64,000 bases of DNA from Alphaproteobacteria bacterium (lineage in GTDB: Bacteria > Pseudomonadota > Alphaproteobacteria > UBA828), in NCBI GenBank assembly GCA_965214705.1, contig CBDCCI010000002.1, forward strand, positions 2,400,001 to 2,464,000, written 5' to 3'. Below the pieces are notes generated by a model. That model had not been told where the DNA came from. It was given only the letters and a program-made list of their open reading frames with translations, and made no database searches. A program made the translations under genes and the position numbers. Of this stretch, positions 15,028-38,694 are shown in pieces (positions within the stretch are counted from its first letter, which is position 1; the number at the start of each line of letters is the position of its first letter).

Positions 15028-15741
15028 ATGGACCTCGCGATCATATGGGAGAGCCTGCCCCGCCTGCTGGACGGCGCGGCGCTTACGGTCGAGATCACCG
15101 TCATCAGCCTGGCGATCGGCCTGGCGCTGGCGGTGCCGCTCGCGATCATGCGGCTTTCGTCCAACCCGCTGCTGTGGATGCCGGTCTACGGCTACATCTT
15201 CTATTTCCGCGGGACCCCGCTGCTGGTGCAGCTCTTCCTGGTCTATTACGGCTCCGGCCAGTTCCGGCCCTTCCTCGACTCGATCGGGCTCTGGGTGCTG
15301 TTCCGCGAGGCCTATTTCTGCGCCGTGCTGACGCTCACCCTCAACACCGCCGCCTACACCGCCGAGATTCTGCGGGGTGCGATCCAGGGCGTGCCGCGCG
15401 GCGATATCGAGGCGGCGCGGGCGCTCGGGTATTCGGGCACGCTGCTCTACCGGCGCATCGTGCTGCCGAAGGCCTTCCGCCTCGCGCTGCCGGCCTACAC
15501 CAACGAGGTCGTATTCCTGCTCCAGGCGACCTCGCTGGTCTCGATCATCACGCTGCTGGATCTCACGGGCGTCGCCCGCATCATCGTCGCCCGCAGCTTC
15601 GAGCCCTACAAGCTCTACATCACGGCCGGCCTGATGTACCTGGTGATGAGCTACTTCTTCATCCTGCTCTCGCGCTTCATCGAGCACCGACTCTCCGGTC
15701 ACATGCGCGAGCGCCCGGCCAGTGGTAGCGCCATACGCTGA
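15028..15741 (+). CDS. Polar amino-acid ABC permease (HisM-like)
   Basis: FRGTPLLVQ, LNTAAYTAEILRG, ALPAYTNE. Confidence 0.88.
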   Translation: MDLAIIWESLPRLLDGAALTVEITVISLAIGLALAVPLAIMRLSSNPLLWMPVYGYIFYFRGTPLLVQLFLVYYGSGQFRPFLDSIGLWVLFREAYFCAVLTLTLNTAAYTAEILRGAIQGVPRGDIEAARALGYSGTLLYRRIVLPKAFRLALPAYTNEVVFLLQATSLVSIITLLDLTGVARIIVARSFEPYKLYITAGLMYLVMSYFFILLSRFIEHRLSGHMRERPASGSAIR

Positions 15742-15774
15742 CGAAATTCCTCAAAGATGCCTACCTCCCCCTGT

Positions 15775-17138
15775 CCCCATAAGCGCTAACTTGTTTGTCA
15801 TGTCGGCACTCCGTATTGTGGGTTGGTGCGCGCTGCGGGGAGGCTTGGCGGATGGACGAGGAGTGGGAAGTGGTGTCGTTGTTTCTGCCCGAGGGCTGGC
15901 GGGAGTTGGCACGGGAGACCGGGGCCTTGAAGGGTCTGCGCAAGGACAAGTCGGTCGATGCCCTGCTGCGCACGCTGTTGCTGCATCTGGCCTGCGGACA
16001 CTCGCTGCGCGAGACCGTGGTGCGTGCCCGGAAGGCGAACCTGGCCGATCTGTCCGACGTGGCCTTGTTGAAGCGGCTGAGGAAGTCGGGGGATTGGCTT
16101 CACGCGTTGTGCGTCGCGCTGTTTCGCGAACGGGGGATGGCGATGTCGGCCGCTGGCGGGTTCCAGGTCAGGGCCTTCGACGCGACGACGGTGAAGGAGC
16201 CGGGCCGGACCGGGGCGCTGTGGCGCCTGCACTACAGCGTGCGCCTTCCGTCGCTGGCGTGCGACTTCTTCAAGCTCACGGCGAGCGAGGGACGGGGCAC
16301 GGGCGAGGCGTTCTCGCAGTTCCCGGTCGGCGAGGGCGACTTTGTGCTCGCCGACCGGGCGTACTCGACTGCTGCGGGCCTCCACCACGTGGTGTCTGCG
16401 GGGGGTCACGTCACCGTGCGCGTGAACACCGGGTCGCTGTCGCTTCGAACGCGCGACGGCGCGCCGTTCGACCTGCTTGCACACGTCACGACGCTGAAGC
16501 GGGTCGGCAGCGTGCGATCCTGGCCCGTGCTGGCGGTCGGCGACGGCATCGCGGTGCCGGGGCGCGTGTGCGCGATCAGAAAGACGCAGGAAGCCATCAG
16601 GCTGGCGCAGCGCAAGCTGCGCAAGGAGGCCGGGCGCAAGGGCAAGCAGGTTCGGCCGCGAACCCTGGAGTTCGCGCGCTACGTCATCGTGTTCACGACC
16701 TTTCCCGAAGCGGCCTTCAGCGCGGCGCAGGTCCTGGAGTGGGATCGCACCCGCTGGCAGGTCGAACTGGTCTTCAAGCGCTTCAAGTCTCTGGCGCAGT
16801 TGGGGCATCTGCCCAAATACGACGACGAGAGCGCCAAGGCGTGGCTCTACGGCAAACTCCTGGTGGCGCTGCTGGTGGAAAAGCTGATCCGTCATGCCGG
16901 CACGGTTTCCCCCTGGGGATACAGCCTGGAGGCGCTGCCGGCCGCACAGCGCCTGGCGTGACTTCAGGTTCATGCTCAACCAGGGCGTGCGAGCCATCGA
17001 ACCCCATTTGTCCCTCGCCGAGGTGATCGACCAATGGAACCAGATCTCCAAATCCCTCTCCGAACCGTCCCGACGGCGCCTGACCCAAACCGCGGAACGC
17101 TTCATCGAAGAACCGCAAACAAGTTAGCGAATGTGGGG
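15775..17138 (+). mobile_element. IS4-family element with transposase at ~15852..16961
   Basis: IRs CCCCATAAGCGCTAACTTGTTTG / CAAACAAGTTAGCGAATGTGGGG; DDE motifs FDAT, ADRAY, RWQVELVFKRFK. Confidence 0.8.
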
Positions 17139-17234
17139 AGGTGGGGCCCCTCCTCGCCAAAGACTTCTGGCCGTTCTACCTGCTGGCCAGAGCGCTGGGG
17201 CCGGTAGGATTGTCGGTCTGGCAGTTCGGGAAAG

Positions 17235-17566
17235 CGAAGCTTGAGGTTGTCGTACCAGAGCTCGCCCGGCACGCCTTGCCACGCCTCGAAGGCCGCGACG
17301 TGGCCGCGCAGGAAGCTGCTCATGCCGGCGTCGAGCTAGAAGCGCAGGAAGAGCCGCTGCGAGTAGTTCAGCACCATCACGAAGGCCATCAAGCGGCGCA
17401 CCGCGCGACCGATCCTCACCGTGCAGAAGTGGGCCCAGTCGACCTGGGCCTGCTCGCCGGGAAGGGTCTTGAGGCGTAGATAGGCCTCGGCCGCTCGCGG
17501 GCGACGAGGCGGCGGAAGTGGCTCTGACTCCCTCGATAGTCGGCGGCGGTGATCAGCTTTCGGAGC
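17235..17566 (-). pseudogene. IS21 IstA transposase internal fragment
   Basis: Fragmented reading [47 protein letters not shown] with a stop and frameshifts. Confidence 0.75.
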
Positions 17567-17567
17567 C

Positions 17568-17990
17568 TAGAGCACAATCCTATCTGACTGAATCGAAAGG
17601 GATTCCCAAGGCGTCTGGTTTGTGCTTCACACTGTCTGCCGGGAGGGAGGCCGGCAGACATGTCGAAAGCGCTTTCCCTTGATCTTCGGGTTCGGGTCCC
17701 TGAGGCGGTGGCCGAGGGCGTGAGCCACCGCGCCGTTGCGGCGCGCTTTGGTGTGAGTGCGGCGAGTGTCAGCCGTTGGTGCAGGCGGGCACGTGTTGAG
17801 GGCGAGTCTCGCCCGAGAGCACTGGGCGGAGACCGTCGCTCCGCTCGCATCGAAGCGCATCGTGCGCTGATCCTCGACGTGCTGGCTGAGACCCCCGACG
17901 TCACCATCGAGGAGTTGCGCCGCCTGCTCGCCGGGCGCGGGCTCGACTTCGGCTATGGCACGATCCAGCGCTTCCTCGTCCGCCAGGATA
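17568..17990 (+). mobile_element. Truncated IS630-family element (left end plus N-terminal HTH ORF from 17660)
   Basis: TAGAGC-type end; MSKALSLDLRVRV..ARFGVSAASVSRW..GGDRRS..PDVTIEEL. Confidence 0.75.
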
Positions 17991-18450
17991 TGGCCTGCAG
18001 CGCGACAGTGGCGGAAAGTATCGACATACAGGGTGCCGGAACCGGCGATACGGCACCGAAACCGCGCGTGGTCGTGGTGGACTACGGGGTCAAGGGAAAC
18101 ATCGTCGACAACCTCGTTCGCAGGGATATCGACGTCACCGTCGTGCCGGCAGAAGCCTCCTCGAGGGACATTCTGGCGCACGATCCCGACGGTATTCTGC
18201 TGTCCAACGGTCCCGGCGATCCGATGGCCGTGGCGCCGTACACCGTTCCCATGATCGAGACCCTGCTCGAGCGGAAGCTGCCGTTCTTCGGCATCTGCCT
18301 GGGGCATCAACTCCTGTCCCTGGCGCTTGGCGGAAAGGTGACCAAGATGCCTTTCAGCCATCATGGCGCCAATCATCCGGTTCTGGAGAAGGCCAGCGGC
18401 CGTGTGGTGATCACCAGCCAGAATCACGGTTTCGTCGTCGACCGCGACAC
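17990..18450 (+). pseudogene. carA: Internal fragment of carbamoyl-phosphate synthase small subunit (class I GATase domain)
   Basis: VVVVDYGVKGNI, DGILLSNGPGDP, FGICLGHQLL, HHGANHPV, ITSQNHGFVVD; lacks the N-terminal domain and the C-terminal HPE. Confidence 0.8.
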
Positions 18451-21318
18451 CTTCCCTCGCATCGCGCCACGCGCCGTCCGAGACGTAGTCGAGCGCCGCC
18501 TCCTTGGGCTCGGAGCGCGACCAGCGCTCGCCAAGGTAAGCCCTGATGTCACTGTCCAGGACCGGGCGCTCCACCTCGTCCTCGGGCCGTCTTCCCGCGA
18601 TGTCGAAGGCGAGCTGCGACCAGTTGACATAGACGTCGATTCCCTCGCGATGCCGAGTCGCGGCGGGATAGATCGTCTCTCGCGCCGGACGGTCGTCCAC
18701 CAGCAGGAAGGCGCGGTCTACGGTCAGCCCCTGGGCCGAGGCGATGGTCATCGCATAGCCGTAGTCGAGCCGGACGTTGTCGTGCCAGTCGCGGATCTCG
18801 TCGTGGCGGAACGCGACACGCCTGCCGTCGTCCGTGCGCGCCGTGATGTGGACGGAAGGCTCAGCCTTCGACTCGTTCCCCGAACTCTCGGACGCGCTCG
18901 TCTTGCCGTCCCTGCGTCCGCCGGCTAGCCGGTTCCGGGCCTTGCGTGACACTGCGGTGTCGTCGCCACGCCGGACTTCGAGGTCTTCCACCGTGACGAC
19001 GGTGCCGTTGAAGAGCTGCTTCTCCCACTGCGTGGAGCCGATGCGGATGCGATCGCCCACGGCGATCTCCAGCGGCTCCGTCACGCGCCCGTCAAGGCCC
19101 CGGCTCACCTCGATCACGGCACGCTTCGCATCGGGCGTCTGCGCAAGCACCCGCAGCCGCATGAGCCAAGACAGCGCCCGCGCCTCGGCCCGCGTGCGAG
19201 CCAGCACCACCGTCGAGGCATCGGGCTCCGCACGCACATGCCGTTCCCAGTCCTCGACGAGCTTGGTCAGGGTCTTCTCTTCGTCGTGGCAGAGATGGAA
19301 GCGGTTGCGCAGATGCCACGCCTCGATCGCCTGCTCTGCCTCTCCGTCCCTGAGCGCCTCCGACACCGCCACCTGCCACGGCGTGAACAGGGGTTTCTTC
19401 TCCATCGCCTCGTAGTCGGCGAGAATCGCGTCGCGCTCCTGGGGATTGGTCAGCCCTGCCCGGAAGCGCGCCTGTTCCGGCGTCTCCTTGTGGACGTGGA
19501 CGAGAACGTCCTCGAGGTCCGCCTTCTGGCGCCTGATGCGGTCGACGCGGACGCTACCGGCGATGTCCCGGATCAGCCTGAGTCCCGGCCCTGCCTCCAC
19601 CGGCTGCTGTTGCCGCGTGTCGCCAGCGAACACCACCTTCGCCTCGTGGCGCTCCGAGAGCTGCAGGATATGATGCGCCTGTCGCGTGGACAGCATCCCC
19701 GCCTCGTCCACCACGATCAGCGTGCGCTTGCCGATCTCCACCTGGTCCTTCGCCGCGAGCTTCAGCAGCTTGTCCACGCAATAGGCACGCGCATCGCAGT
19801 CGTCGCCGAGGGCCACGGCGGTGCGCCAGGCCACGGCGGTCGGCACGATCTCGTAGCCGTGCTCCTTGTGAAGGTCGGTGATGGGCCTGAGCGTCGTGGT
19901 CTTGCCCGAGCCCGCAGCGCCCTCGATTACTGCCACCCGTCCGCCCTTCACCGTGGCATGGTGGATCGTCAGCGACTGCTCTTGGCTCAGCGGATATCCC
20001 TGCTCCAGCAGGGTCTCCAACCTCTCCTTCACCGCCCCTTCCGGCAGGCCGTGGCCGGTATCTTCGGCCATGGCCTCGGCCATGTCGCGCACCGCCTGCT
20101 CGAGGCCGAGATTGTGGCGCGTGGAATAGACCTCCGTGTGGGCCATGCCGGCGCGGGACTCGGCCGTCGGCTTCTTGGGCTCCAGCCGCTCGATCTCCGG
20201 ATTACGGCGCAGCCGCTCGATGGCCGTCCCCACCGCCTCCCGGCCCATCAGACCGGCCGCCGCGTTCGCCGCCGCCTCCACCATGTCCGGGCGCCGGAAC
20301 ACCGCCTCCTCGCGAGCGAGATGGGCGGGGAGATCGTCGAGCCGGTCGGTCAGCTCCCGGATTTCTTCACGGTCGATCCTCACCTCATGGCCGGTCACCG
20401 AGGCGATCAGCGCCTCGCGCTCGCAGAAACCCTCGGCCTCGCCGCGCCAGCGGCGGTGCCTCACCTCCGGGTCATTGTCGTGCGACTTCCCCTCGCGCGT
20501 GAGCTTGTTCACCCCCGCCATGCGGGCAGCATTGCCCAATGACGGGATGCCCAGCTCCCCCGCCCTGGCGACGATCGCCTTCCTGCGCTTCGACCAGAAG
20601 GATTGCAGGTCCTCCGGCATGCCCACGATGCGCGTGAACTCCACGTTGGGACCGTACTGCTGCATCCTGACGCCCAGGTTCTGTTGCAGCTCCCACGCCA
20701 CATAGGCCCGGAACAGGGCGCCCGCCGCCTTCTTCCAGTTGTAGACCGGGTACTGGTGATGCGCCCGCCACTTGCCGTCCTCGCGGGTCCTCGCGAGATT
20801 GAAGATCGTGCAGTGGACGTGAAGCTGCGGGTCGTTCTCCCTGCTGGTACCGTGGACGAAGGTCGCGCCCATCAAGTCCGCCTCCAACGGCCGGGTCACC
20901 CCCTTCTCGCTCACGCGGGTGTAGCTGCAATGCTTCAGCACCGAGTCGTCGAGTGCCGCCCTGGCGGCGGCCACGGCCATTGTCTCGATCCGTTCGCGCA
21001 TCTCCGGCTCTGCGATGGCCCACAGTGCCGACACGCTCTTGTCCACCGAGAACGTCATGTCGATGCCGGGGGAGCGGTCCGGGTTGCCGGCGCGCTGCAC
21101 CAGCTTGCCGGATCCATCAGGAGCGAAGCCCGAGTAGAGGCGATGGAAGTGGCCGCTGTCGACCTTTGCCCCATCCTCCAGACCGAACAGGCCCTTCGGG
21201 TTGAACCAGGTGCCGTCCGGCTCCTCGGCCGCCGTGTAGTACTCGTTGGGGTGCCGGAACGAGCGTTGCTCTCCAGGTAGTATTCGGCAGACGCCATCTG
21301 ACCGATGGTCGCTACCAT
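18450..21318 (-). pseudogene. MOBF (TrwC/TraA-like) conjugative relaxase-helicase; 5' frameshift near 21268 and truncated C-terminus
   Basis: N-terminal AEYY/NEYY tyrosines, DMTFSVDKSVS, HUH motif HGTSRENDPQLHVH, helicase motifs GAAGSGKTT, VVDEAGM, YAMTIASAQGLTVD. Confidence 0.85.
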
Positions 21319-22062
21319 GGCGGCAGGTTCCCGAACCGTTGGGCGAACGCGTTCATGACCGCCGGGGCCTGACCAGCAATACCCGACGCCGGCAGCCTTT
21401 CATGGCCAGCTGCGACTGCGTGAAGGGGCACGCCAAGTCCTTGTACAGGTGTTATATCGTTCGGCCTCCATGGCCAGTCAGGCGGCTCCGTTTCGCTCCC
21501 GCAAGCGTCAGCTTGCACAGGTGTGGCGGGTTACTTTCTCTCTCGCGTGCTTCACTCACCACGAGATACATCATGTAGCGAGTCGCTCGGCGGGAATAAC
21601 AAGAGATAGTATCGGTCCGGGCGCTTCACCTGAACGGTGCACCTTCCTGGATGGCAAGGTGGGGCGGCATGGCGCTTATTCGTAGCTGCTTGAGAGTGTC
21701 GAGATAATCGGGGCGCGGGGAGAGAGTGGCGAAGCGCTCCGATTCAGCGGGGATGAGCGACAAGGCGATGGCGGCCGCCTTGGCGAATCCGGTGCGAACC
21801 ACCATGAGCGCCATCGATGCGCAGACCGGGTGCGAGAGCGCAGGCTCGAGCGATCATTCGAGGGCGTAGCGCTGACAATTGGCGTCTGGCGGTGCAGTGG
21901 CGAAGTGACACGGAAGGGCGTTGGCCACAGGCAGGGAGGGCGGAGCGCGGGCGATGGCGGAGCGCAGCAACGCTTGACGTATCGCGACACGATACGGGAA
22001 GGATGATGCTGGCGCATAGCGCCGAGCGCGGGATGGCGATGCCGTCCGCCCCGCCGTCCGAC

Positions 22063-22503
22063 AATCAAGGGTCGCAAACGCCACATCCTCACCGACACCG
22101 GCGGCCTGTTGGTTGCCGCTCAGGTCCACGCCGCCAACATCCAGGATCGCGACGGCGCTCCCTCGGTGCTTGCGTCCATCCGCCACGCCTTCCCCTGGCT
22201 GCGTCACGTCTTCGCCGATGGTGCCTATGCCGGCCTCAGGCTCGCGGCGGCTCTGGAGCGGATCGGTCGGTGGACCCTGGAGATTGTCCAGCCCCGGCTG
22301 GTACGCGAGGGTTCGATATCCTGCCGCGCCGCTGGGTGGTCGAGCGCACACTGGCTTGGTTGAACCGCAATCGACGGCTCGCCAAGGACTTCGAGGCCAC
22401 CGTCGCCACCGCCCAAGCGTGGCTCTTCATCGCCAGTGTTCAACTCCTCACCAGAAGACTGGTAAGATACTGAAAATCAATATCTTATTATAGGCCAGAC
22501 TCT
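22063..22503 (+). pseudogene. IS5-family (IS1031/IS427-like) transposase C-terminal remnant
   Basis: [29 protein letters not shown], then a frameshift to [25 protein letters not shown]. Confidence 0.8.
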
Positions 22504-22615
22504 TAGACTATACTCTTCGCGGTCGTTGTCTGCTGGGACATTCGCTGTGAGACAACACCTGGAGTCATGGCGAGATCAGCGGCCTTGATCGGTGTCTTCG
22601 CGGGCGAACCCCTGA

Positions 22616-23350
22616 TCAATAGCCGAGAACGCTGTAGTCGCCGTTCACGATCAGGCGAATCGAGACGTAGAGGCCCAGCAGGGCGAACAGCACCCACGGG
22701 CAATTCAGCGCCCAGATATAGATGTACATATCCTTTCGGCCGAGGCGGCTTTGTCGATTGGCCACGAAGAAGCTGACCCAGTAGACCGACGTCGCGTAGG
22801 TCAACTGCCAGAATATCATCGCTCCCATAATGCCGGCGACGAGGGCGGGCAAGAAATCGACGGTGAAGGCGGCAAAGAGGATCAGCGTCGGTACCGGCGT
22901 TACGAAGCCGTTGGCGATATCTACGTTGTAACCGTATGTGCGCCGGTCCGCGTAGGAACTGTCGAACTGGGAATACGTGGCCCAGACGTCCGCCCACATC
23001 GTCGACGACAATATTCGCGTCAAGGGAACCCTTCCAGTAAGGAATTCGGCGGCTGGTGTCCGGCCCGTTTCCCGCCGGCGTTCGCGCCAGTATTGGGCGC
23101 GCTTCTCGATGTAGTCGCGGTTGAAGAACAGGCATATCTCCCAATGGCAGATCACCAGATTGATGGAAAAGAAGAGGATCAGCAGTGCATGAATGACGTC
23201 GAAATCCCCGCGGACGCCGTAGCGCGCACCGATGCCGGACGCTGTCAGAATTGCGATGACCAGCCCCGTGAATACGACCGGCGCAATCGCCAACCGAGTC
23301 CGGTGGGTGTCGCGACCCGAACGGGTTTGCGCGGCTTGCTTTTCGGCCAT
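22616..23350 (-). CDS. EBP/EXPERA-like membrane protein, putative sterol delta8-delta7 isomerase
   Basis: Several TM helices; WATYSQFDSSY resembles EBP WKEYxxxDSRY; QLTYATSVYW and LNCPWVLF resemble the EBP C-terminal motifs; located in the sterol cluster. Confidence 0.6.
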   Translation of the reverse strand: MAEKQAAQTRSGRDTHRTRLAIAPVVFTGLVIAILTASGIGARYGVRGDFDVIHALLILFFSINLVICHWEICLFFNRDYIEKRAQYWRERRRETGRTPAAEFLTGRVPLTRILSSTMWADVWATYSQFDSSYADRRTYGYNVDIANGFVTPVPTLILFAAFTVDFLPALVAGIMGAMIFWQLTYATSVYWVSFFVANRQSRLGRKDMYIYIWALNCPWVLFALLGLYVSIRLIVNGDYSVLGY

Positions 23351-23538
23351 GTGGTCCCATCCTCTCTGGCGCTGCGGCGTTGCCTCTCGCCCCATTGTAC
23401 CCTGTGGAAAGTTCGACGCCCCGAACAAGGGCGCTACGCCTGGGACTCCGTGGATATCGGCGTCATGAAGCGAGGCATCGGAGTTTCCCATGGCTTTCCG
23501 GTCTTGGGGACGACGTGCGGCTCTGGCAGAATGTGCCC

Positions 23539-24570
23539 ATGAATCGCACCTCCGCCACCCGATCGAAAGCGCGCTCCCTCGCGGGCCTCGCCCCGGACGA
23601 AGTAAAGTCCACGGTCGATGGATACACCGAAATCTTTGACGCCGGCCTGGAGCACAGGAAAGAGCATTATCGCTCGTTCGTGAGTCGCTACTACGACCTG
23701 GCGACCGACTTCTACGAGTTCGGTTGGGGCCAATCCTTTCACTTCGCACCCCGCAGCCGGGGCGAGAGCTTCAAGGCATCGCTGCTCAGACACCAGCATT
23801 TTCTCGCTGAAAAGCTGTCCCTGAAGCCGGGTATGCAAGTAATCGATCTGGGATGCGGGGTCGGCGGACCGATGGGCAATCTGGCCCGTCATTTCGGGGC
23901 GAGCTTTGTCGGCGTCAACAACAACGCCTACCAGATCGAGCGCGCAAGACTGCACACTCGGGATGTCCAGTCGTTATGTCGCTTTATTCACAGTGACTAC
24001 ATGGAGATTCCCGACGACGACGACCGCTACGATGCCGCCATGGCGATCGAGTCCATGCCCCACGCACCCGACAAGACAGCGGCGTTCCGCGAGGTCTTGC
24101 GCGTGCTGCGTCCGGGGGCCTGTTTCGCGGGCTACGAGTGGTGCGTTACCGACATATTTGATACCGGCAAGACGGAGCACCGGCGAATAAAAAACGATAT
24201 CATGGCCGGGAATGGGCTGCCGGATATCGCGACCACGTCGGAAGTTTCCGCCGCATTGCAGACGGCTGGATTCGAGCTCCTGGAAGCGCGCGACCGCGCA
24301 CCCGAAGCGGACCCGGAGATGCCGTGGTACCGTTCCTTGCAGGGCCGCGACCTCAGTCTTTCGAGTATTCCGCGCACGCCGGTCGGCCGCGTTCTGACTA
24401 ATTTCACTTTGCGGGTGGGAGAACGGCTGCGGCTCTTTCCCGAGGGCGCCCGCGCAGTCAGCACGCTCCTGAATGCGGGAGCGGACGCGCTGGTGGACGG
24501 CGGCAAGTCCGGCGTCTTCACGCCGATGTTCTTTTTCCTGGCCCGCAAACCCGGGCGCCCGCGCGACTGA
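23539..24570 (+). CDS. smt: Sterol C24-methyltransferase (ERG6/SMT family)
   Basis: SMT region I FYEFGWGQSFHF, SAM motif DLGCGVGGP, region III IESMPHAP, region IV PGACFAGYEW, C-terminal GVFTPMFFFLARKP. Confidence 0.92.
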   Translation: MNRTSATRSKARSLAGLAPDEVKSTVDGYTEIFDAGLEHRKEHYRSFVSRYYDLATDFYEFGWGQSFHFAPRSRGESFKASLLRHQHFLAEKLSLKPGMQVIDLGCGVGGPMGNLARHFGASFVGVNNNAYQIERARLHTRDVQSLCRFIHSDYMEIPDDDDRYDAAMAIESMPHAPDKTAAFREVLRVLRPGACFAGYEWCVTDIFDTGKTEHRRIKNDIMAGNGLPDIATTSEVSAALQTAGFELLEARDRAPEADPEMPWYRSLQGRDLSLSSIPRTPVGRVLTNFTLRVGERLRLFPEGARAVSTLLNAGADALVDGGKSGVFTPMFFFLARKPGRPRD

Positions 24571-24629
24571 ACGAAGCGGGCCTTCGTCCGCGCGGCGCTG
24601 CGCGAGACCACCCATACTCTGGACGGGGA

Positions 24630-29449: not shown

Positions 29450-29457
29450 CTCCGCTC

Positions 29458-30558
29458 TCAATGGATGAAGGGCAGCATCGCGAAGCGCGCCCGCTGCGTG
29501 TAGCGCTCCCACAGCTCGCCGTACTTGGCGCGGCAGCGGCGCTCGTCGCGTCTCGAACGGTGCCACAGCAAGCCCGCTAGCCACGCCGGCAACAGGAAGG
29601 GAGCCCAGGACGTAAGCCCGGTGGTCAGGGCGAAGGCGAGGTAGACGCAGATCTCGCCGGTGTAGTTGAGGTGCCGGCCGATGCCCCAGAACCCGGAGAC
29701 CAGGAGGCGCCCGTCCAGGGTACGGGCGGGCTTGCCCCAGATCCTAACGTTGGAATCGCGCTTGAAGCGGTGCTTCTGCTGATTGGACCCGCGGAAGAGC
29801 CAGAAGCCGAAAACGAAGAGCACGACGATCCCGGCGGCGGCGGCCGGAGACAAGGGCTCCGGTGCGTGAACCAGCCACCAGCCGGGGAGACAGTAGAAGA
29901 AGGGCACCAGCACGTAATCGCCCCAGACCAGCATCCATCCGAAGCGCTCGCGGACGATGTCCCAGGTATGGATCATCCCCTGTTCGAACTGGAAGTAGTT
30001 GAGCACGTAGAGGAAGGTGAAGGTCTGGTAGAGCATCATCGCCAGGGTCAGCTCGCCGTAGGTCTCGTACTGCACGGCGGCAAACGATGCGTTGAAGAGC
30101 GCTAGGCCGATGAGGGAGGGGCAGTAGCTGAAGAGCTTGATATCCAGCCCGAGCCAGGATGGAGCGGCGTCCACCCCGTAGAAGAAGTCCCGCCATGATC
30201 TGGGCGATGCATGAGGCTTTCGCACCCCGCGCAGGTAGAGCCAGCCGGAGAGGGCGAACGCGAATCCGTTCGCCACGACGAACAGGGCGAGCAAGTGGGT
30301 ATGCAGCACCGAAAGGGAGAGCACGCCGGAGGCTTGCGCGCCGCACGCCGCAATCATGACGATCAGATAGAGCGCGAGGCCGTTGAGCTTGTAGACGCGC
30401 TCGTTCCCGTCGGCATCCGGGCCCGTGATCCGACGACCCGGCAGCAGCAGCGAAGCCACGAAGAGGAGGGCGATGAACCCCAGCACCATCGCCGCCGCCT
30501 CGAGCAGGGTCTCGCCCGAGAGCGCCGACGAGAGGTTGAGCGCTTCAGGCGGCGGCAT
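29458..30558 (-). CDS. ERG24/DHCR7/LBR-family sterol reductase (probable C14 reductase)
   Basis: DIVRERFGWMLVWGD, NQQKHRFK, LLVSGFWGIGRHLNYTGE, RDERRCRAKYGELWERY. Confidence 0.9.
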   Translation of the reverse strand: MPPPEALNLSSALSGETLLEAAAMVLGFIALLFVASLLLPGRRITGPDADGNERVYKLNGLALYLIVMIAACGAQASGVLSLSVLHTHLLALFVVANGFAFALSGWLYLRGVRKPHASPRSWRDFFYGVDAAPSWLGLDIKLFSYCPSLIGLALFNASFAAVQYETYGELTLAMMLYQTFTFLYVLNYFQFEQGMIHTWDIVRERFGWMLVWGDYVLVPFFYCLPGWWLVHAPEPLSPAAAAGIVVLFVFGFWLFRGSNQQKHRFKRDSNVRIWGKPARTLDGRLLVSGFWGIGRHLNYTGEICVYLAFALTTGLTSWAPFLLPAWLAGLLWHRSRRDERRCRAKYGELWERYTQRARFAMLPFIH

Positions 30559-31642
30559 CGCCGCTCTCCGACCCGCGCGCCAGATGTTCCTGCCACTTGC
30601 GCACGGTCACTTTCTGAAAGGCCCTGACCACCGGATTGAACTCGACAGGACGGGCGTCCCAGTGTCTTTCGTATCCCTCCTGCTCCGCCTCCAGCGCGAA
30701 CCGGTCCTGGGTGAGCAGGGGGGCGATGAGCAGGCGATTGGAGACCTTCATGACCGCGGTCATGGCGAAACGGGGAATGCGCACCGGCAGCAGAGGTACT
30801 TTCAGCGACTTGAAATAGAACAGGAAGAACACCCGGCTGGTGCGCTCGTCGACCGGCAGCACGAAGAGCCAGTGCTTTATTGCGTCGTCGGTGTTCGACC
30901 ACTGGTAGGGGTACTCGTAGCAAAGCTCCATGCGGTTGGTGTTGAGCCGCCGATGATCGACGAAGAGGCCCGAGATGCGCCCGCGCCCCACGTGCGTGTC
31001 GTAGGCGAGATGCACGTTGTCGCCGAGGGTCTCGCAGCGGGTGAGGGTGGCCCCGTCGAAGGGCCGGTAGCGGCGGTGCAGGTGTGCGTGGGTGAAGTCG
31101 CTCACATTGTCGATCACCATCGAGTGGTGTGCCGACCAGGTGAAACAGAGCGGCACGCAGGCCCAGCGGCCGGATCCCTCGAGCTCAGGAATGTCCGGAA
31201 TCCGGCGCTCCTCCGCCAGCGCCGGATCTCCCGGGAAGAGCCAGATCAGACCGTAGCGGACCTTCACCGGATAGGTCTTGAGCGCAAGATTCGGAAAGCT
31301 TCGCCCCTCGCGATCATGGGGCACCCCGGCGGGACGCCCCTTCCCGCCATACTCCCAGCCATGGTAGGCGCAGACGAGCCGGCATCCCTGCACGTCGCCC
31401 AGGGAGAGCTTGAGCTGGCGATGCGCGCAGCGATCCTCGACCGCCTGGAAGGTGCCGTCCTTTCCCCGGAAGAGCGCGATGGAACGCTTCCAGAAGACGA
31501 CCTCGATCACCGTCTCCGGCTTGATCCGGCGCAATTCCTCGACCGGATACCAGTAATTCGGGTCCATGCCCGCGGCGCGAGCCTGCTGGCGCAGGTTGCC
31601 GGCGTCCTCGAAGCCGGGCGGCGCGGCGGGCGCCGCCCTCAT
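30545..31642 (-). CDS. sdmA: Rieske non-haem iron oxygenase, SdmA-like sterol C4-methyl oxidase
   Basis: Rieske CAHR..CAYHGW; mononuclear Fe site DNVSDFTHAHLH; position between an SDR and sterol genes. The sdmA label is inferred from context. Confidence 0.7.
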   Translation of the reverse strand: MRAAPAAPPGFEDAGNLRQQARAAGMDPNYWYPVEELRRIKPETVIEVVFWKRSIALFRGKDGTFQAVEDRCAHRQLKLSLGDVQGCRLVCAYHGWEYGGKGRPAGVPHDREGRSFPNLALKTYPVKVRYGLIWLFPGDPALAEERRIPDIPELEGSGRWACVPLCFTWSAHHSMVIDNVSDFTHAHLHRRYRPFDGATLTRCETLGDNVHLAYDTHVGRGRISGLFVDHRRLNTNRMELCYEYPYQWSNTDDAIKHWLFVLPVDERTSRVFFLFYFKSLKVPLLPVRIPRFAMTAVMKVSNRLLIAPLLTQDRFALEAEQEGYERHWDARPVEFNPVVRAFQKVTVRKWQEHLARGSESGDAAA

Positions 31643-32267
31643 GGCGCGCTCCCGCCTGCCATCATCCGCATGCCCTGGTCCGGCGCGGGATCACCCTCCT
31701 CACGCGTAACATGCCGACTCGCGGCGTCCTCGCACGGGCGCTTCGCGTGCGGGTTCGCGATCTTGTTGCGGCCGTAGTGGAACGCATAGGCCTCATGAAC
31801 CGCGGCACGGAGGCCGGTCGGCCGATAGCCGAGCTCCCGTTTCGCCTTGGAGATGTCGGCGTGGCGGCACTTTCGCAACAGGCGTATGGCGCCGGGGGTG
31901 AAGCGCTGGGGAAAGCCCGGGTGAACCCGACTCAGATAGAAGCTCGCGATTTCGGCAAAGGTTAAGGGTTGGGCAGGCTCTCTCTCGAGAGCCTGCCCAA
32001 CCCTTTTGAACGAAGCCGCGGGCCACGAGAGGCGAAGTTGAGCTATGTGGAAAGTGCGCTGATGTCAGCGTCAGGCGGCATCCACCGGCAGCAGAGTTGC
32101 GCATAAAATCGACGCTCGCGCCGGTCTTTCGGCAGGCATGCGGGCGCACGCTGCGAGGACTGAGCGGGGTGTGAGCCGAGGGCTGTCAGCCCGGCTCAAG
32201 CGGAGACAGGTTCGGTCGTGCGTCGGCGCTTTGGCGCCGTTGCGCGGGGCCGAAGCGAGCGGGCGTC

Positions 32268-33509
32268 TCACGGTTTCCCCCTGTGGGTCGGCGGCAGCGC
32301 CGGCGGGCCGCGCGTCGAGCGGGGCTCATGGCGGCGGCGGATTTCGCGGACGAGGCGCATGACGCCGCCGCAGTGGGGGCAGGCCACGGGCGCGGTGCCG
32401 ATCTCGGGCTCTTCGTCGGGCTCGGCCCGAGCGCCGTCCACGCTTCCCTCGGGGGCGGCGCAGCCGAGGGCGCCGAGAGCCTGGCGTGCTCTCTCCAGCG
32501 TGCTGGCGCGGCAGCCGTTGGCGAGGATGCCGAAGTAGCGAGTGCGGTGCATGCCGTCCGGCAGGACGTGCCTCAGGAAGCGGCGGATGAACTCGTCGGC
32601 GCTCACGGTGGCGATGCCGTAGCGCGGCTTTCTCTGCCCCGGCGCCTTGGGCTTTCGGTGGCGGAAGGAGACCGTCTCGCCGTCGAAGGAGACGATGCGG
32701 CTGTCGGAGATGGCGATCCTGTGCGTGTAGTGCGAGAGGTACCGGAAGACCTGCTCAGGCCCGCGGAAGGGCCGCTTGGCGTAGACCACCCAGTCCCTGG
32801 CCCGGGCGGCGGCAAGCGTGGCGTGGAACTCGCCGGGATTGGCGAGGTGGGCGACGGTGCCGTGGAACTCCAGGTCCCCCCGGCCGTGGGCGCGGGCGAG
32901 CTCCTCGAGGAAGAGGCGGCGGAACAGGCTGCCGAGGACCTTGACGGGGGCGAGGAAGGTGGTGCTCCCCGTCTTCCACTCGCCACTGTCTACGTCGAAG
33001 CCCGCGTTGGGCACGACCACGTGCAGGTGCGGGTGGAAGCGGAGCTTCTGATCCCAGGTATGGAGGACCGCGGTGCCGCCGATGCGCATGCCGCCGTGGC
33101 GGGGATCGGCGGCGATGGTGCGCAGGGTCTCGGCGACGGCCCGGAAGAGGATGTCGAACACCACCCTGCGGTTGCAGAAGGCAATGGCGGCAACCTCCTT
33201 GGGCAGGGTGAAGACCACATGGAAGTAGGGCACCGGCAGGATGTCCCCGGCGCGCTCCTCGCTCCAGAGGTTGGCGGCGAGACCCTGGCAGGTGGGGCAG
33301 TGGCGGTTGCGGCAGGAGTTGAAGAGCGGATGCTCGCGCCCGCAGCCCTCGCAGGCGTACATGTGGCCGCCGAGCACGGCGGTGCGGCACGCCTCGATGG
33401 CGCCCATGACCTTGAGCCGGGCGGCGTCGATGCGCCCTTTGTGGCGCTCACGGAAAGCGGCGCCGGCGCGGCGGAAGATCTCCGCCACGCCCGCGCGTTC
33501 GGCCTCCAC
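32268..33509 (-). CDS. IS91-family (HUH/Y2) transposase
   Basis: Zn-binding CRT..CEGC..NSCRNRHCPTC; HUH LHTW..HPHLH; YLSHYTHR; RYFGILAN. Confidence 0.9.
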   Translation of the reverse strand: MEAERAGVAEIFRRAGAAFRERHKGRIDAARLKVMGAIEACRTAVLGGHMYACEGCGREHPLFNSCRNRHCPTCQGLAANLWSEERAGDILPVPYFHVVFTLPKEVAAIAFCNRRVVFDILFRAVAETLRTIAADPRHGGMRIGGTAVLHTWDQKLRFHPHLHVVVPNAGFDVDSGEWKTGSTTFLAPVKVLGSLFRRLFLEELARAHGRGDLEFHGTVAHLANPGEFHATLAAARARDWVVYAKRPFRGPEQVFRYLSHYTHRIAISDSRIVSFDGETVSFRHRKPKAPGQRKPRYGIATVSADEFIRRFLRHVLPDGMHRTRYFGILANGCRASTLERARQALGALGCAAPEGSVDGARAEPDEEPEIGTAPVACPHCGGVMRLVREIRRRHEPRSTRGPPALPPTHRGKP

Positions 33510-33515
33510 GCGCCG

Positions 33516-34394
33516 TCAGTTGCGCAACGCTGCGAAGCCTGAGATCGGGTGGTCGAGGCCCTCGAACATCTTGCCGGTGACGCGGGCGTAGTGACGGGTC
33601 GTGTTCGCGCTTCGATGGCCGAGCATGTCCCGGATCACCTCGATATCGCCGCCGCGCTCGAGGAGATGGGTCGCCGCCGAATGGCGCAGGCAATGGAAGG
33701 TGTAGCTGCGGTCGAGCTCGGCAATGTCGCGCGCCCTCCTGAAGGCGGCCTGCAAGGTCTCCGTTGCGATGGGCCTGTCGAGCGAGACGCCGTAGAAGAG
33801 CCAGCTCGTCGGACGCGGCCAGATGTTCCTGTAGTAGACGCGCAAGTAGTGGATGACGATGTCCGGCAACGGTGCCATTCTCTCGGTGCCGCCTTTGCCG
33901 GAGGGGATGTGCAGCAGCTTCTTCTCCGACAGGATGTCGCCGACCTTGATGGCCAAGGTCTCGGAGATGCGGAGCCCGCCGCCATAGCCGGTGACAATGG
34001 CAGCACGGTGGCGGAGGTCGGGTGTCGCAAGGATGAGGTGCTCGACCTCCTGCTCCGACATGTAGCGCGGCAGCTTGCCGGGCTTCTTGCGGGAGCGCAG
34101 GCCGGCGACATGGTCAGGCCAGCCGAGTGTGTCGATGTAGAGGAAGTTCAGCGCGGCGAAGGAGACGTTGGTCGTGCCCGGACTGAGCCCCTTGTCGATC
34201 CGCCCCAGGTACCACTGGCGCACCTGCTCGGCGTCGAGCTCGTCCGGCGAGGCGTCGTAGTACCTGGCCAGGTTCTTGATCTCGCAGATGTAGGCCTTGG
34301 ACGTGCTCGCGGCCAGATTGGCGATGCGGAGCTGCTCCTCCATGCGCTGGCGAAGAGGGGTGACGGTGTTCGTGTCGCACGCGGTCCCGGTCAT
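33516..34394 (-). CDS. Tyrosine recombinase/integrase
   Basis: GLRISE, KGGTER, HCLRHSAATHLLE, LGH, TRHY; N-terminal TPLRQRM typical of IS91-associated integrases. Confidence 0.9.
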   Translation of the reverse strand: MTGTACDTNTVTPLRQRMEEQLRIANLAASTSKAYICEIKNLARYYDASPDELDAEQVRQWYLGRIDKGLSPGTTNVSFAALNFLYIDTLGWPDHVAGLRSRKKPGKLPRYMSEQEVEHLILATPDLRHRAAIVTGYGGGLRISETLAIKVGDILSEKKLLHIPSGKGGTERMAPLPDIVIHYLRVYYRNIWPRPTSWLFYGVSLDRPIATETLQAAFRRARDIAELDRSYTFHCLRHSAATHLLERGGDIEVIRDMLGHRSANTTRHYARVTGKMFEGLDHPISGFAALRN

Positions 34395-36039
34395 TATCGA
34401 TCTCCCTGGATCGCGACGGCGCGCCGCCGGACCGATCCGGCGACGGTCCGTCGCAGGGGTCGATGCTAACCACTGGTGATCGGGAGGCTGCTGGGGATCC
34501 GCCACCCGACGGGCGGAGCGCCACTGACGCAACCGGGAAGCGAACGCACAGAACAAACGGCACCCGCGACGCCTCGGAAATGAATGAACTCTACGCCGCT
34601 AACTCCGCGTAGCGGCTTCGTTCAAGACGAGCATGAGGCGGGTCGGAATTCGCCGGCGCGGCCGCGGGACGCCGGAGACCTCCTCGTAGAGATCCAGGAT
34701 ATCCGAGATGGTCTGGTACTCGGTGCTGAAGATGTACTTTTCGCCCGAGCGACCGTGGTGCATGCACAACACGTGCCCTTCGACGATGTCGCGCGCCGCG
34801 ACGAACTCGAAACCGCCATCGACGTAGGCACGGAGCTTGCCGTTGGTGTAGTCGCACAGGGTTCTTCCCAGTCGCGAGGGGAAGAAGTCGGCGCCCCCCA
34901 CCACCGCACAGCACGTCGCGACCACCACGTCCTGCCCCGATGCCGCCGCGCGCCAGCACTCCTGCTCGACGAGCGACTTGCTGCGCTCGTAGGGCATCGT
35001 GCGCTCCATGGGGTAGAACTGCATGGTCTCGTTGCTGGGAGCGGAGGGATCGTCCAGGTCGTATCCGACCGCGCTGAACGAGCCCGTCACCACCACCCGG
35101 CCGGCCCCCGCCTCCCGCGCCGCCTGCAGCACGTTGCGGGTACCGAGAACGTTGCACTCAAACACGTCGCGGCGATGGGCGCGGTTGCCTTCGATGGTCG
35201 AGACGTAGGCCGCGCAGTGATAGACGCCCTGACATCCCGTGATCGCCCGCCTGATGTCATCCAGATCCCGAATGTCGCCGAACGCGCGTTCGACCTCGAG
35301 ACCTTCCAGGCCCTCGTTGTTGTCCTCGTGTCTCAACAACACTCGGACCCGCACGCCCTCGTCGAGCAGCCGGCGCACGAGGTTGGCGCCGACATGCCCG
35401 GCCGAACCGGTAACGAAGACGGGCGGCATCGAAGATCCCGCCGGCATGCTCGATTCCGAAGTCATGGATGCCGGATTCCGTCAAGCGGAACGCGGGGCCG
35501 ATCCCATTCCGCGGGATGTTCGCAAGGTCTTACAGACACCGTCGCGCGCCCGCCGGCCGGCGTCAAAATAGCCCCTGCGGCGAAGCCAAGCCGTGCCCGT
35601 TCGCGCTCCCACATACCGCGAATTCTCCATGTCTGTCCCTCCATGTTCGGTAAGCCCGCGGCACCGACCGACCGGTACGAATCCAGACAGGGAAAAATCT
35701 ATGCGATTTAGTCACATAGCGTCCAAGAAAATACACTCATAGCGCTCATAAGTTATGCCAATGTATCGCACTGCCGCGTCGTGCTTCTGCGTGCTGATGA
35801 TCTCCATACTCGTCCAGACCCCTTGGCAAGGTCTGTTGGATATACCGAATCCCTCCGCCGATGAGATTGCCATTGCGGTCTCCTTCGGCGTTCTGGCCAA
35901 TATCAATGTCAGTTCCCTGCAAACCGCCGAAGACATGGAATGGGTCTGCGACCTCGTAACTGAAGCCGAGGGTCAGCCCCTCAGAGCCCTGCTGAATGTT
36001 CGAGTGCTCCCACACCAGGCTGATGTGAATATAGAAAAA

Positions 36040-36900
36040 TTAGGGTTCGCTTCCAATCCCGTAGGAGCGGCCGGAGCCAGACGTCCTTTTTTGGCTTGTC
36101 ATAGAGTTTGTCGCGGTCGTAGCGCCCGCGCCCCTGCGTGATTCCGACACGGGTCCAGCCGGAGGCGCTGTAGACGGCGCCGGTGTAGCGCGGCGTCTCG
36201 ACGAAGGTCTCGATGAGCACGGGGGTGGTGCTATGGCGCTCGGCCCAGTCCTCGGGCAGGCGGCGGCGGACGGTGGCGAGAATGTGCGAGCCAAGGTTGA
36301 GGATATGGATCCAGGGCAGGATCAGGAACCTGGGGTTGTCGATGACCAGCGGCAGGCTCTTCTCGCGCTTCTGCGGCGTCTATCCGATAAAGGCGTCACG
36401 CGGGGCGAGTTTCCAGGCGGCGGTGCTGAAGCCGAGCATGGCGACGGGCCAGCCGTCGCGGTCGTGGACAGCGTAGCGCATCTGGGCGCCGACCAGGGTC
36501 TTGTAGCCGAAATAGTGGTAACGGGCGACAAACTCGTTCCACAGCTTGCCCTGGCGGGTGCCGCGCACGACGGTGCGCGGGTCGAGGGGGCGAACGTCAT
36601 CGAGGGCCGTCGGCGCTGGGAACAGCGGCGGTTCGGTGTCCGGCCCTAAGACGATCGGCTTGGGTCGGCCCCTTTCCCACTTGGGCGGCGGCAGCGTGAT
36701 CAGGCCGTCGCGGTGCATAGCCAGCGTGGTGACGCGGGCCATCATGTCCTTGAGACCGCCGTCGGGCTTGAACCAGCCGATGCGCCGGCAAGCTCTCTCG
36801 AAAGGGCCCGGCGGGTTGGCGGCGGTGAAGCAGCGATCAGCGCGTGCAGCAGCGCCATCTCTCCGGTGGTGAAGTCACGCCCGTAATAGCGGCACTCGAC
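36040..36900 (-). pseudogene. DUF4338-domain (IS-associated) protein, frameshifted
   Basis: RYYGRDF.., LWNEFVARYHYFGYKTLVGAQMRY, AWKLAPRDAFIG, RFLILPWIHILNLGSHIL, LIETFVE..GWTRVGITQGRGR, spread over several frames. Confidence 0.7.
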
Positions 36901-37443
36901 GATGGGCGGTGGCCGGCAACCTCCGGGCTGATCGACGAGTTCTTTGGGGCGAAGGGCAACACACTGGTGATGGGCGAGGGAGCGGCACCGGAGGATGTCA
37001 ACATCTTCTTCGCCCGGTTTTGCTTACCAGCCGCCGAAGGCGGAGCGGGAGAGGGAATACGACATGCCGGGCGCGTCCATGAAGACGGTCCGCCGCGCGT
37101 TCTTCCGCCCGATCAACGTCCGGCGCGAGGGGTGAGACCGCCCGCCCGCGAAGAGGCCGAATGGCCGACCCTCGAGTACGACTTCAGATTGTGAACGGCG
37201 TCCCGCCATTCTGATGCGTTCCGCATCGGGCGCTTCGGCGTTCGTATCCGTCCTCAGGAAGTGCCATGCGGACGCCTGAGCCCGCGTGCAGTTGGTGCGT
37301 GCTCGCTGCACGCGGGCTTTTTTCATCGGAATGAGGCACCGTCGTTCGTGCTCGCTCCGGCGCCTCGGACCCGCGCGCAATATTCGAGCTTCTTCTGTGC
37401 GCGGGCCCGCTTTCACCAAGGAAATCCCCTTATGGATAGTGTC

Positions 37444-37617
37444 ATGGCGGATGAGAAGTTCGAGGTCGGGGACACCGTGCAACTCAAGTCGGGCGGCCCG
37501 CACATGACCGTCGTTACAGCGGCGGAGTATCAGAGGAAGCGGTTGGTCCAGTGCACATGGTTCGTCCATGGCGACAAGCGAGCGGTGGCGACGTTCTCTG
37601 CTGAGTCCCTCCGCTGA
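37444..37617 (+). CDS. YodC/DUF2158-family small protein
   Basis: FEVGDTVQLKSGGPHMTV..VQCTWF. Confidence 0.75.
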   Translation: MADEKFEVGDTVQLKSGGPHMTVVTAAEYQRKRLVQCTWFVHGDKRAVATFSAESLR

Positions 37618-38087
37618 TCGGAACGCGCCGAGCCGATAGTGGGCGACGAGGACTGAACTGCAGACGGGAGGCGGTCGACGGTTATCTCACGCGCCGTCCA
37701 CCGACCAGGGGGGCAGCCGGTTCTGAGCTTCTTCCCGGCTGCCCCTTTCACCCACCACCGATGAGGCAGACCATGGCAGATGAGAAGTGCAACGACAGCG
37801 TGAAGAGCTTGACCATTGCGGCGGCCGTTACCGCCATTGTGTTGGCTGGCGCCGGGCGGGTGGCCAATGCCGATCCCGATCCTGAAGAATCGCTAAAATC
37901 CCCCTGCCCCCGAACGCTTACCACGCTTACGCCGAACGTGTGCACGATTGGAGGTCAGGAATGGTCGGGAGTTTACTTCGGGGTGCTTACTTGGTGAATA
38001 TTTTCCTTGATCGGGCACCTCACTCGTGTCCGTGTTGTCTCTCAAGCTATTGATGTACAAAGAATTTGTGCGCTCGCGCGGCAGACC

Positions 38088-38657
38088 ATGACCGTGGTGA
38101 GCAACCCGGCTCTTCGAGACGTGTTCTGGTTCGGCATGTACACCGGGATGCGGCGCGGCGAGGTGATGCCGCTCCGCTGGGATCGTGTAGACAGGGAGGC
38201 GCTGGTCTTCCGTGTGGACAACACCAAGACGGGGGCGCCGCTGGAGCTGCCCATCACCCGGCAGCTCGCAGCCATTCTCGATCGTCGGTGGGGCGAGAGC
38301 GGTCACCTGAAGGGCGGCTGGGTGTTTCCCTCTGCCACCAGCCGGACGGGCTACTTCGTGAAGCTGACGTATTTCCATCGCCGGATCAGCGAGGCCGGGG
38401 GAGCGAAGTTCTGGTTCCACGGGATGCGCAACTACTTCATCACCGTAGCGGAGCGGGAGCTGATGCTGCCGCACGCCCTGACCAAGCGCCTGGTGAACCA
38501 TGCGCCGCCCCGCGACGTCACCGAGGGGTACGCCACCGACTGGACGATCGGGCAGTTGCGCGAACCCGCTCAGCGTATCGTGGATCGCATCGAGGCCTTG
38601 ATGGGAGCTGAGCCCGACCGCGTTATCGGGGGGATGGAGACGCCGGGGGCTTCATAG
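38088..38657 (+). pseudogene. Tyrosine integrase, C-terminal catalytic fragment
   Basis: YTGMRRGE, TKTG, FHGMRNYF, LVNH, VTEGY; no N-terminal domains. Confidence 0.75.
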
Positions 38658-38694
38658 CCTGATCTCTCAGGTTCAAATCCTGCCGCCGCTACCA
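38648..38694 (+). other. Degenerate 3' half of an initiator-type tRNA-Met (att-site remnant)
   Basis: GGCTTCATAGCCTGATCTCTCAGGTTCAAATCCTGCCGCCGCTACCA: CAT anticodon-like loop, T-arm GGTTCAAATCC, CCA end; 5' half absent. Confidence 0.7.

Follow-up and report, generated by a model that had tools for sequence, protein, structure and literature searches.

Steroid gene clusters have been described in bacterial symbionts of sponges. As given in the text of the survey of Ircinia symbionts, such clusters are present in 115 of 537 metagenome-assembled genomes, from 10 phyla; they are under purifying selection, and their gene trees disagree with the genome phylogeny (Kelly 2022, PMC9531527). In sponge-symbiont metagenomes, according to the text of a second study, the gene for sterol C-24 methyltransferase (SMT) is clustered with sdmA, sdmB, the gene for oxidosqualene cyclase (OSC) and other sterol genes, and within that text 'Fused SMO/OSC homologs' are mentioned in the methods only (Brown 2023, PMC10070321). 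As far as these texts go, horizontal transfer of sterol clusters among sponge symbionts is already published, and its vehicle is not. The text and searchable supplements of Kelly 2022 mention no mobile element, transposon, integrase, plasmid, conjugation or relaxase and describe no carrier or site of insertion, and what is mapped here are a relaxase, integrases and tRNA half-sites; in those of Brown 2023 no analysis of genomic context or mobile elements was found. In a literature search for oxidosqualene cyclase together with genomic island and integrase, none of the papers listed contained the cyclase term. We analysed a stretch of 64,000 nucleotides from an alphaproteobacterium of the lineage UBA828 (assembly GCA_965214705.1, contig CBDCCI010000002.1, positions 2,400,001 to 2,464,000), hereafter the window, in which a sterol cassette lies among pieces of mobile elements. 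Adjacent in order, it holds the genes for ERG24, CYP51 and lanosterol synthase, the arrangement by which a sponge-symbiont steroid gene cluster (CSG) is defined in the text of Kelly 2022, and the likeness to the clusters described there extends to the nearby SMT gene, the occurrence in many phyla, the purifying selection and the discord between gene trees and genome phylogeny. An earlier note, made from the letters of this stretch, had taken the cassette for the cargo of a decayed mobilisable island that ends at a tRNA-Met attachment (att) scar.

For the mobile pieces, two described systems are close. Genomic islands that target tRNA genes by P4-type integrases carry the Arm-DNA-bind_3 and Phage_integrase domains beside a tRNA 3' segment. 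The window resembles these islands in having an integrase of this family beside a tRNA 3' segment that extends from the start of the anticodon loop to the CCA end, but differs from them in that there is one att copy and that the integrase is without its 233 N-terminal residues. The second system is TrwC of plasmid R388, which the window relaxase resembles in that its relaxase domain, which contains the His-rich motif, stands at the N-terminus and precedes a helicase domain of the AAA_30 type. Compared with its closest plasmid relatives, which are annotated as 'MobF family relaxase', the window relaxase is 27-31% identical, frameshifted and truncated, while its intact relatives are of about 1350 aa. 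We consider, at a probability of roughly 0.55, that this stretch is an accretion zone, in which several independent dead mobile elements have gathered around an intact and selected sterol cassette. This reading starts from what was observed, namely what each piece is and how well it is preserved, cassette flanks that vary from locus to locus, an insertion and an inversion specific to the window, and purifying selection on the cassette. The surrounding pieces would be a broken MOBF relaxase element, one of many copies of an abundant kind, an attR-type end of a P4-type integrative element targeting initiator tRNA-Met, a mobile and inverting DruA segment, fragments of insertion sequences (IS), and a recent insertion of an IS91 element plus recombinase within the operon. 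These pieces would have arrived separately. The cassette, which is shared by bacteria labelled as many phyla, would have been relocated as a block within the alphaproteobacterial clade of this genome; it probably moved passively in larger segments, with no machinery of its own, and the routes may have been site-specific integration beside tRNA genes and IS-mediated rearrangement.

Coding frames were picked by the GC content at third codon positions (GC3) and named by Pfam, covering 62 open reading frames (ORFs) and 82 frames of the window. Relatives were collected by a genome scan with the cytochrome P450 as the query, which gave 80 loci (cited by number below) at 58-97% identity; no locus is identical to the window, and L001 and L002 are nearest, at 97%. 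The sterol cassette is intact and of about 10.4 kb. The first gene of the operon, on the minus strand, codes for an SdmB-like NAD-dependent epimerase/3-beta-hydroxysteroid dehydrogenase (34599-35465; Pfam). There follow on the same strand the genes for an SdmA-like Rieske oxygenase of C-4 demethylation (30545-31642; Pfam Rieske and VanA_C), an ERG4/ERG24-type sterol C-14 reductase (29458-30558; Pfam E 6.8e-68), a cytochrome P450 of the CYP51-type sterol 14-demethylases (28040-29584; Pfam p450 E 9e-58), and a fused squalene epoxidase-oxidosqualene cyclase (SE-OSC) of 1152 aa (24630-28088; Pfam SE, FAD_binding_3 and SQHop_cyclase_N/C). The fusion is shared by relatives, as more than 120 database clusters at 76-97% identity to SE-OSC are mostly of the same fused length, about 1130-1150 aa. 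The SMT gene (23380-24570; Pfam Sterol_MT_C E 1.9e-20) lies on the plus strand, and orfX (22619-23350, minus strand) codes for a multi-pass membrane protein of 244 aa, for which tblastn matches were found in many loci and which accompanies SMT in many of them. No significant Pfam match was obtained for orfX; a lead from the protein atlas hints that it may be related to the EBP sterol isomerase family (PF05241). The cassette is under purifying selection: when compared with L001 and L002, the ratio of nonsynonymous to synonymous divergence (dN/dS) was 0.08-0.25 for all seven genes, with 0.14-0.18 for orfX, at a synonymous divergence of 0.03-0.16. No contrast in GC or GC3 was detected between the cassette and the neighbouring genes. 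Element-like termini were sought at the cassette edges and none was found; the left edge is the stop codon of orfX, at which homology also ends in 7 loci, and the right edge decays gradually.

The 80 loci are labelled as Alphaproteobacteria (29), Gammaproteobacteria (22), Binatia, Dehalococcoidia, Nitrospiria, Acidimicrobiia, Acidobacteriota, Gemmatimonadota and others, and many carry sponge-related names. Whole flanks were inspected for the 10 closest loci; for the other 70, the inspection took in the two best ORFs on each side, up to 3.5 kb away. By Pfam, the flanks of the cassette differ in all 10 closest loci. An ATP synthase operon with IS110 lies on one side in L001, with IS5, a 29-aa relaxase stub and an IS1380-type element on the other; the flanks are a SulP transporter and a relaxase in L002, amidase/ABC genes and isocitrate dehydrogenase-type genes in L078, Mutator and IS66 transposases in L003, an IS5 piece and a Tni-like module in L004, and tRNAs, LepA and PheT in L023. 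Pairwise comparisons of the loci showed only the cassette in common. In the clade to which the window belongs, the cassette occupies no conserved core position; a conserved one in relatives is what the earlier note had named as speaking against its island. In 13 of the 80 loci (11 of 29 alphaproteobacterial, 2 of 51 others), the nearest ORFs include genes of mobile elements. Elsewhere the position is conserved: the cassette lies between recA and mutS in the gammaproteobacterial L049, L075 and L079 (with cinA too in L079), and five Chloroflexota loci share cassette flanks.

A tree of five concatenated proteins was constructed by FastTree for the window and the 61 of 80 loci with all five at a coverage of at least 85%, 19 loci being dropped. 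The tree clusters by phylum, with 8 label changes, which is the minimum possible and was reached by 0 of 200 shuffles. The window falls within a clade of 24 rows whose other members are all alphaproteobacterial, Nitrospirota and Binatota nest in the gammaproteobacterial group, and the proteins are 62-87% identical between phyla. Transfer between phyla has occurred and is old relative to the clade of the window, and no recent foreign arrival is visible in tree or composition. For the proposal in the earlier note that sterol synthesis arrived by horizontal transfer, the tree speaks for old transfer between phyla but not for a recent arrival, and the horizontal mobility of the cassette was supported but not its carriage by a single element that ends at the scar.

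The pieces listed in the earlier note were all recovered, beginning with the relaxase-helicase on the left. The MOBF (TrwC-type) relaxase-helicase gene is a pseudogene at 18860-21318 on the minus strand, represented by the ORF 17627-21100. This ORF matches Pfam TrwC (E 4.7e-47) and AAA_30 (E 1.9e-38), and aligns with the solved TrwC (1OMH, 2CDM) at E 1.2e-19 from TrwC residue 24, covering the His-rich motif. When compared with the L002 copy, a frameshift was located at 21265-21268, at about codon 18, and homology was found to stop at 18857-18915. The first 18 codons are in another frame than in L002, and the N-terminal region of the catalytic tyrosines is not in frame. The final 400 codons or so of the ORF are antisense to a plus-strand frame at 17588-18925, a chimera of an IS21-type helix-turn-helix fragment (Pfam HTH_38/HTH_28) joined to a glutamine amidotransferase fragment (GATase E 5e-35); this chimeric frame is debris truncating the relaxase. 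Since the intact relatives are of about 1310-1400 aa (nearly all of more than 120 clusters at 84-91% identity), the window relaxase is without about 500 C-terminal residues. Members of the family occur two or three times on several large contigs, and the longest contig listed for an intact relaxase of 1351 aa (P0126, 91%), which measures 3,042,943 nt, is also the one listed for the window ORF. By tblastn, the relaxase was found near the cassette in 2 of the 80 loci. As the family is abundant and repeated, the presence of a single member next to the sterol genes does not imply carriage. Domains of a type IV coupling protein (T4CP) or type IV secretion system (T4SS) were not detected in the frames scanned, a scan that is not exhaustive for short ORFs. 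By megablast of 15000-39500 against plasmids, only IS-type matches were obtained, in 9 records and with istA matches at about 17279-17516, and there was no sign of a known plasmid.

On the right, the P4-type tyrosine integrase (37998-38657, plus strand; Pfam Phage_integrase E 8e-11) is represented by its C-terminal 45% only. The fragment corresponds to residues 234-416 of an intact homologue of 427 aa, at 89% identity. The catalytic domain is retained (Pfam profile positions 27-143 of 172), and gone is the arm-binding domain (PF13356), which the intact relatives, about 30 clusters at 82-90% identity, carry along with the catalytic one. An intact integrase for an integrative and conjugative element (ICE) was not found in the window; the other recombinase (33516-34556) belongs to the IS91 unit. 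The subfamily of the window integrase was detected by tblastn in 2 of the 80 loci. The stop codon of the fragment (38655-38657) lies inside a decayed 3' half of an initiator tRNA-Met (38650-38694, plus strand), which runs from the anticodon loop to CCA. By ARAGORN, no tRNA was found in the whole window, in agreement with the earlier note that the intact cognate tRNA is not there. Rfam gave no match at gathering thresholds; in the E-value mode on 36-41 kb there were only chance-level matches (best a miRNA family at E 0.37, and PtaRNA1 at E 1.2), and on 38650-38694 the T-arm alone was recognized (11 bits, E 6). The half was identified instead by comparison via L007, in which a clean half of 45 nt is located at 4001-4045, from CTCATAA to CCA, with a near copy in L005. 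Annotated tRNA-Met genes of E. coli match the L007 half at 91.3% identity over 46 nt; such matches occur in 5426 of 5426 genomes, with a median of four places in each. One of these places lies between argG and rimP, presumably metY, the initiator tRNA gene. The window half matches the L007 half over 27 nt at 92.6%; altogether about 38 of 45 positions are alike and about 7 differ, indicating that the window half is decayed. A second copy of the window 27-mer was not found in the window at up to 3 mismatches, and 0 of 100 shuffles matched. Paired direct att repeats were not found within the 64 kb, and the partner could lie outside the window; among the 80 loci, the half-site was found in L005 and L007 only. 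The integrase reads into the tRNA half and the CCA end faces away from the cassette, the geometry of an attR. The half-tRNA beside the integrase is supported as a genuine att-type scar.

Between the cassette and the integrase there is a segment with a frameshifted DruA/DUF4338 gene (36040-37292), which is inverted relative to L002 and L001. Two neighbouring frames (36383-36874 and 35984-36379) are recognized by the DruA model of Pfam and correspond to the DUF4338 remnant of the earlier note. L001 keeps a 43-nt stub of the segment in the orientation of L002, and therefore the inversion of 36040-37292 is specific to the window. Elsewhere the segment was found at 4969-6221 in L002, at another place in L003 (19396-20249), and at 4657-6741 in L042. 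Terminal inverted repeats around the inverted segment were not detected in repeat searches. The DruA gene behaves here like part of a mobile element and not like a defence gene. In L042, DruA shares one open frame with a DDE transposase.

The other window-specific event is an insertion within the operon (31961-34623, minus strand), consisting of an IS91-family transposase gene (32268-33509) and a full-length tyrosine recombinase gene (33516-34556). It lies between SdmA and SdmB and separates SdmB from the remaining operon. Its Pfam matches are Y2_Tnp (7.8e-54), Zn_Tnp_IS91 (4.1e-30) and Phage_integrase. Position 31960 is joined straight to the counterpart of 34624 in 9 of the 10 closest loci, the tenth, L023, being without this region, and the transposase with its recombinase was found by tblastn in 0 of the 80 loci; the insertion is therefore specific to the window. 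A perfect 19-nt hairpin (31964-32005) lies at one end and GTTC (34620-34623) at the right junction. A hairpin end and insertion beside GTTC fit the target rule of the IS91 family, and together with the Y2 transposase and the zinc-binding domain they place the unit in this family. The unit is in the operon's own orientation, and every sterol ORF is still open. The insertion may affect expression downstream of SdmB. As for L023, its cassette is truncated (8041-17019; part of CYP51, SE-OSC, SMT and orfX) and has tRNA-Lys/Asn on one side and tRNA-Ser on the other; its shortened CYP51 directly adjoins a piece of 173 nt that belongs upstream of SdmB, indicating an internal deletion.

Several observations weigh against an accretion zone and leave room for a single tRNA-fMet island. 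First, the succession of relaxase, IS5 remnant, cassette and DruA segment is common to the window and L002 and recurs in the form of stubs in L001, so that this block was inherited or moved as one. The IS5 remnant concerned (21808-22470, plus strand; an IS5-type DDE transposase in two frames by Pfam) is common to L001 and L002 at 90-91% nucleotide identity. The relaxase is 13% diverged from L002, near the upper synonymous divergence of the cassette (0.10-0.16), and these divergences fit a common age and co-inheritance in the three-genome clade. This shared block is the best support for the island of the earlier note. Second, in the sister loci L005 and L007 one edge of the cassette DNA is the tRNA-fMet half, exact to the base. 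Third, tRNAs are enriched at the cassette edges: 4 of 9 flank tRNAs are within 500 nt, against 0.8 expected (P about 0.01, post hoc), and three edge tRNAs have the 3' end toward the cassette. Each of the 9 flank tRNAs was checked for a direct repeat of its 3' end within its own locus, and none was convincing. In addition, the flank ORFs were chosen by a heuristic of GC3 and length, which can miss genes.

The proposal of the earlier note, that the sterol genes came as cargo of one ICE or integrative and mobilizable element (IME), which extended between the relaxase and the tRNA-Met scar and then decayed in place, draws on this shared order, to which the integrase remnant also belongs in the window and L002, with stubs in L001. 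It draws further on the comparable divergence of relaxase and cassette and on the attR geometry of integrase and tRNA half. We regard it as unlikely, because relaxase and integrase are both pseudogenes, neither T4CP/T4SS in the frames scanned nor a second att copy in 64 kb was found, and a member of a multi-copy relaxase family stands beside the cassette in just 2 of 80 loci; on these grounds the relaxase, the cassette and the scar could not be upheld as parts of one element. The same two facts, the order common to L002 and the stubs of L001 on the one side and 2 of 80 loci on the other, bear on whether integrase and relaxase formed one IME. In addition, the 5' truncation of the integrase and the window-specific inversion intervene between integrase and cassette, and their adjacency may therefore be secondary. 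A last point against the single element is that the genes past the scar are neighbours of the cassette elsewhere. Two genes, HK1 (40324-42705, plus strand) and HK2 (42986-45448, minus strand), each code for a hybrid histidine kinase (HK) with GAF, PAS, HK, REC and OmpR parts in a single polypeptide (Pfam), and form an inverted duplicate pair of 74.7% amino acid identity to the right of the tRNA scar. Full-length homologues (59-64%) adjoin SdmB, divergently, in the gammaproteobacterial L033, L037, L050 and L071 (at about 4100-6600), and the scar is therefore not clearly the edge of co-travelling DNA. The HK genes may belong with the cassette, and the scar may be debris inserted between the operon and its kinase instead of the end of the co-travelling DNA. 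The HK proteins are candidate regulators of the sterol operon.

The junction in L005 and L007 leads to another explanation. These loci have 9.8 kb of DNA in common, which is 94.8% identical, begins at the first base of the tRNA-fMet anticodon loop and ends about 20 bp past SMT; both outer flanks are unrelated. The left side carries a degraded integrase of the window's subfamily in L005, and in L007 an intact integrase 25% identical to that subfamily, followed by AbiEii/DUF6088. A hairpin with a 16-bp stem and a T-run was revealed after the L007 half by folding (dG -26.8 kcal/mol, z -5.4), which a simple terminator scan had missed. This is a clean site-specific junction tying the cassette to a tRNA-fMet integration site. 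The integrase-to-core geometry differs from that in the window: the cassette of L005 and L007 is on the flank side of the att junction, whereas that of the window is on the integrase side, and the window integrase reads into the core, whereas that of L005 and L007 is directed away from it. A single inversion that would turn the one geometry into the other was considered; it cannot do so, and the difference is unexplained. The junction places the cassette of L005 and L007 either in the flank or inside an older island that forms part of a tandem array.

With this junction in mind, the cassette might be no cargo at all but DNA that is, or once was, just downstream of an initiator tRNA hot spot, where the landing of different elements mimics an island. 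DNA shared in L005 and L007 only from the anticodon loop rightward through the cassette, the unrelated integrases on the left, the island-type cargo AbiEii/DUF6088 past the L007 integrase on the far side from the cassette, and the terminator-like hairpin after the half, as expected 3' of a native tRNA gene, would all follow from such an arrangement. Yet the window cassette is on the integrase side of its scar and not on the flank side, L005 and L007 differ also to the right past SMT, so that cassette and half are bounded on both sides, and the sister loci L006, L008, L009 and L010 are without a tRNA upstream of SdmB. The pattern would also suit a tandem accretion in which the cassette belongs to an older island, and the hot spot remains in our judgement a rather improbable explanation. 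That the cassette is an ordinary chromosomal operon inherited vertically, without relocation and with incidental debris, is very improbable, for although the tree clusters by phylum with the window in an all-alphaproteobacterial clade, GC and GC3 match the neighbours, and other clades keep conserved positions (recA and mutS; five Chloroflexota loci), 0 of the 10 closest loci share the window flanks past the relaxase-to-integrase block, identity between phyla is 62-87% with Nitrospirota and Binatota inside the gammaproteobacterial group, and the gene trees in the text of Kelly 2022 (PMC9531527) are inconsistent with the genome phylogeny.

The window is high-GC DNA, with 53-71% GC per 2-kb step. 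From 542 to about 15,730 there are ordinary metabolic and transport genes, and from 15,795 rightward a patchwork of mobile-element pieces around the sterol genes. The last of the ordinary genes form an operon of an amino-acid ABC transporter, with the substrate-binding protein at 10829-11605 and the permeases at 14327-15728 but without an ATPase gene (Pfam); it is broken by IS fragments at 11765-14282 and ends after the second permease. Pieces of DDE transposases were identified by Pfam at 11765-12226, 12471-14282 and 13460-14080. Another DDE transposase gene, of the IS4/IS5 type (15795-16961, plus strand; Pfam DDE_Tnp_1 E 1.1e-11), is a plausible left edge of the mosaic because it comes after the truncated transporter operon. 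The IS debris of the earlier note was found in these transposase pieces and in the IS5 remnant at 21808-22470.

To the right of the cassette region, the DNA of about 45000-58000 is of lower GC (53-61%) and carries two genes for LysR regulators, a MauG-type peroxidase gene and a UPF0236 transposase-like gene, along with genes for a ParA/CpaE-like ATPase and for a secretin that has a BON domain; this segment, too, may be foreign. A Tni-like module with an rve transposase, AAA ATPases and AAA_25 lies at 59408-62591, which is 24 kb from the cassette on the SdmB side and 37 kb on the orfX side. The piece is 78.7% identical to that of L004, in which the module adjoins the cassette (17732-21477) and also includes Toprim/DUF3991. 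Among other neighbours of the cassette, open frames in which a GPP34 (Golgi phosphoprotein 3) domain is combined with a cytochrome P450 adjoin it in L021 (4359-6416), L024 (16293-18428), L031 (6866-9010), L035 (6416-9010) and L041 (3449-5539), and GPP34 only in L010 (4295-5785). LolA-like, MMPL and amine-oxidase-type genes recur beside it in other loci.

As leads to the carrier of sterol clusters there are the tRNA-fMet att junction of L005 and L007, the abundant relaxase family and the enrichment of tRNAs at cassette edges. A tentative and rather doubtful idea is that a family of elements integrating specifically at initiator tRNA-Met, with a P4-type integrase and possibly the abundant MOBF relaxase of about 1350 aa, carries or once carried the sterol cassette of sponge-associated Alphaproteobacteria, the window scar and the L005/L007 junction being two remnants of this family. 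If this is true, the tRNA-fMet element family would be the vehicle that is lacking for the published horizontal spread in sponge microbiomes. Sponge-symbiont sterol clusters bear on the debate on steranes as 'sponge biomarkers' and on the bacterial acquisition of a eukaryote-like lipid pathway.

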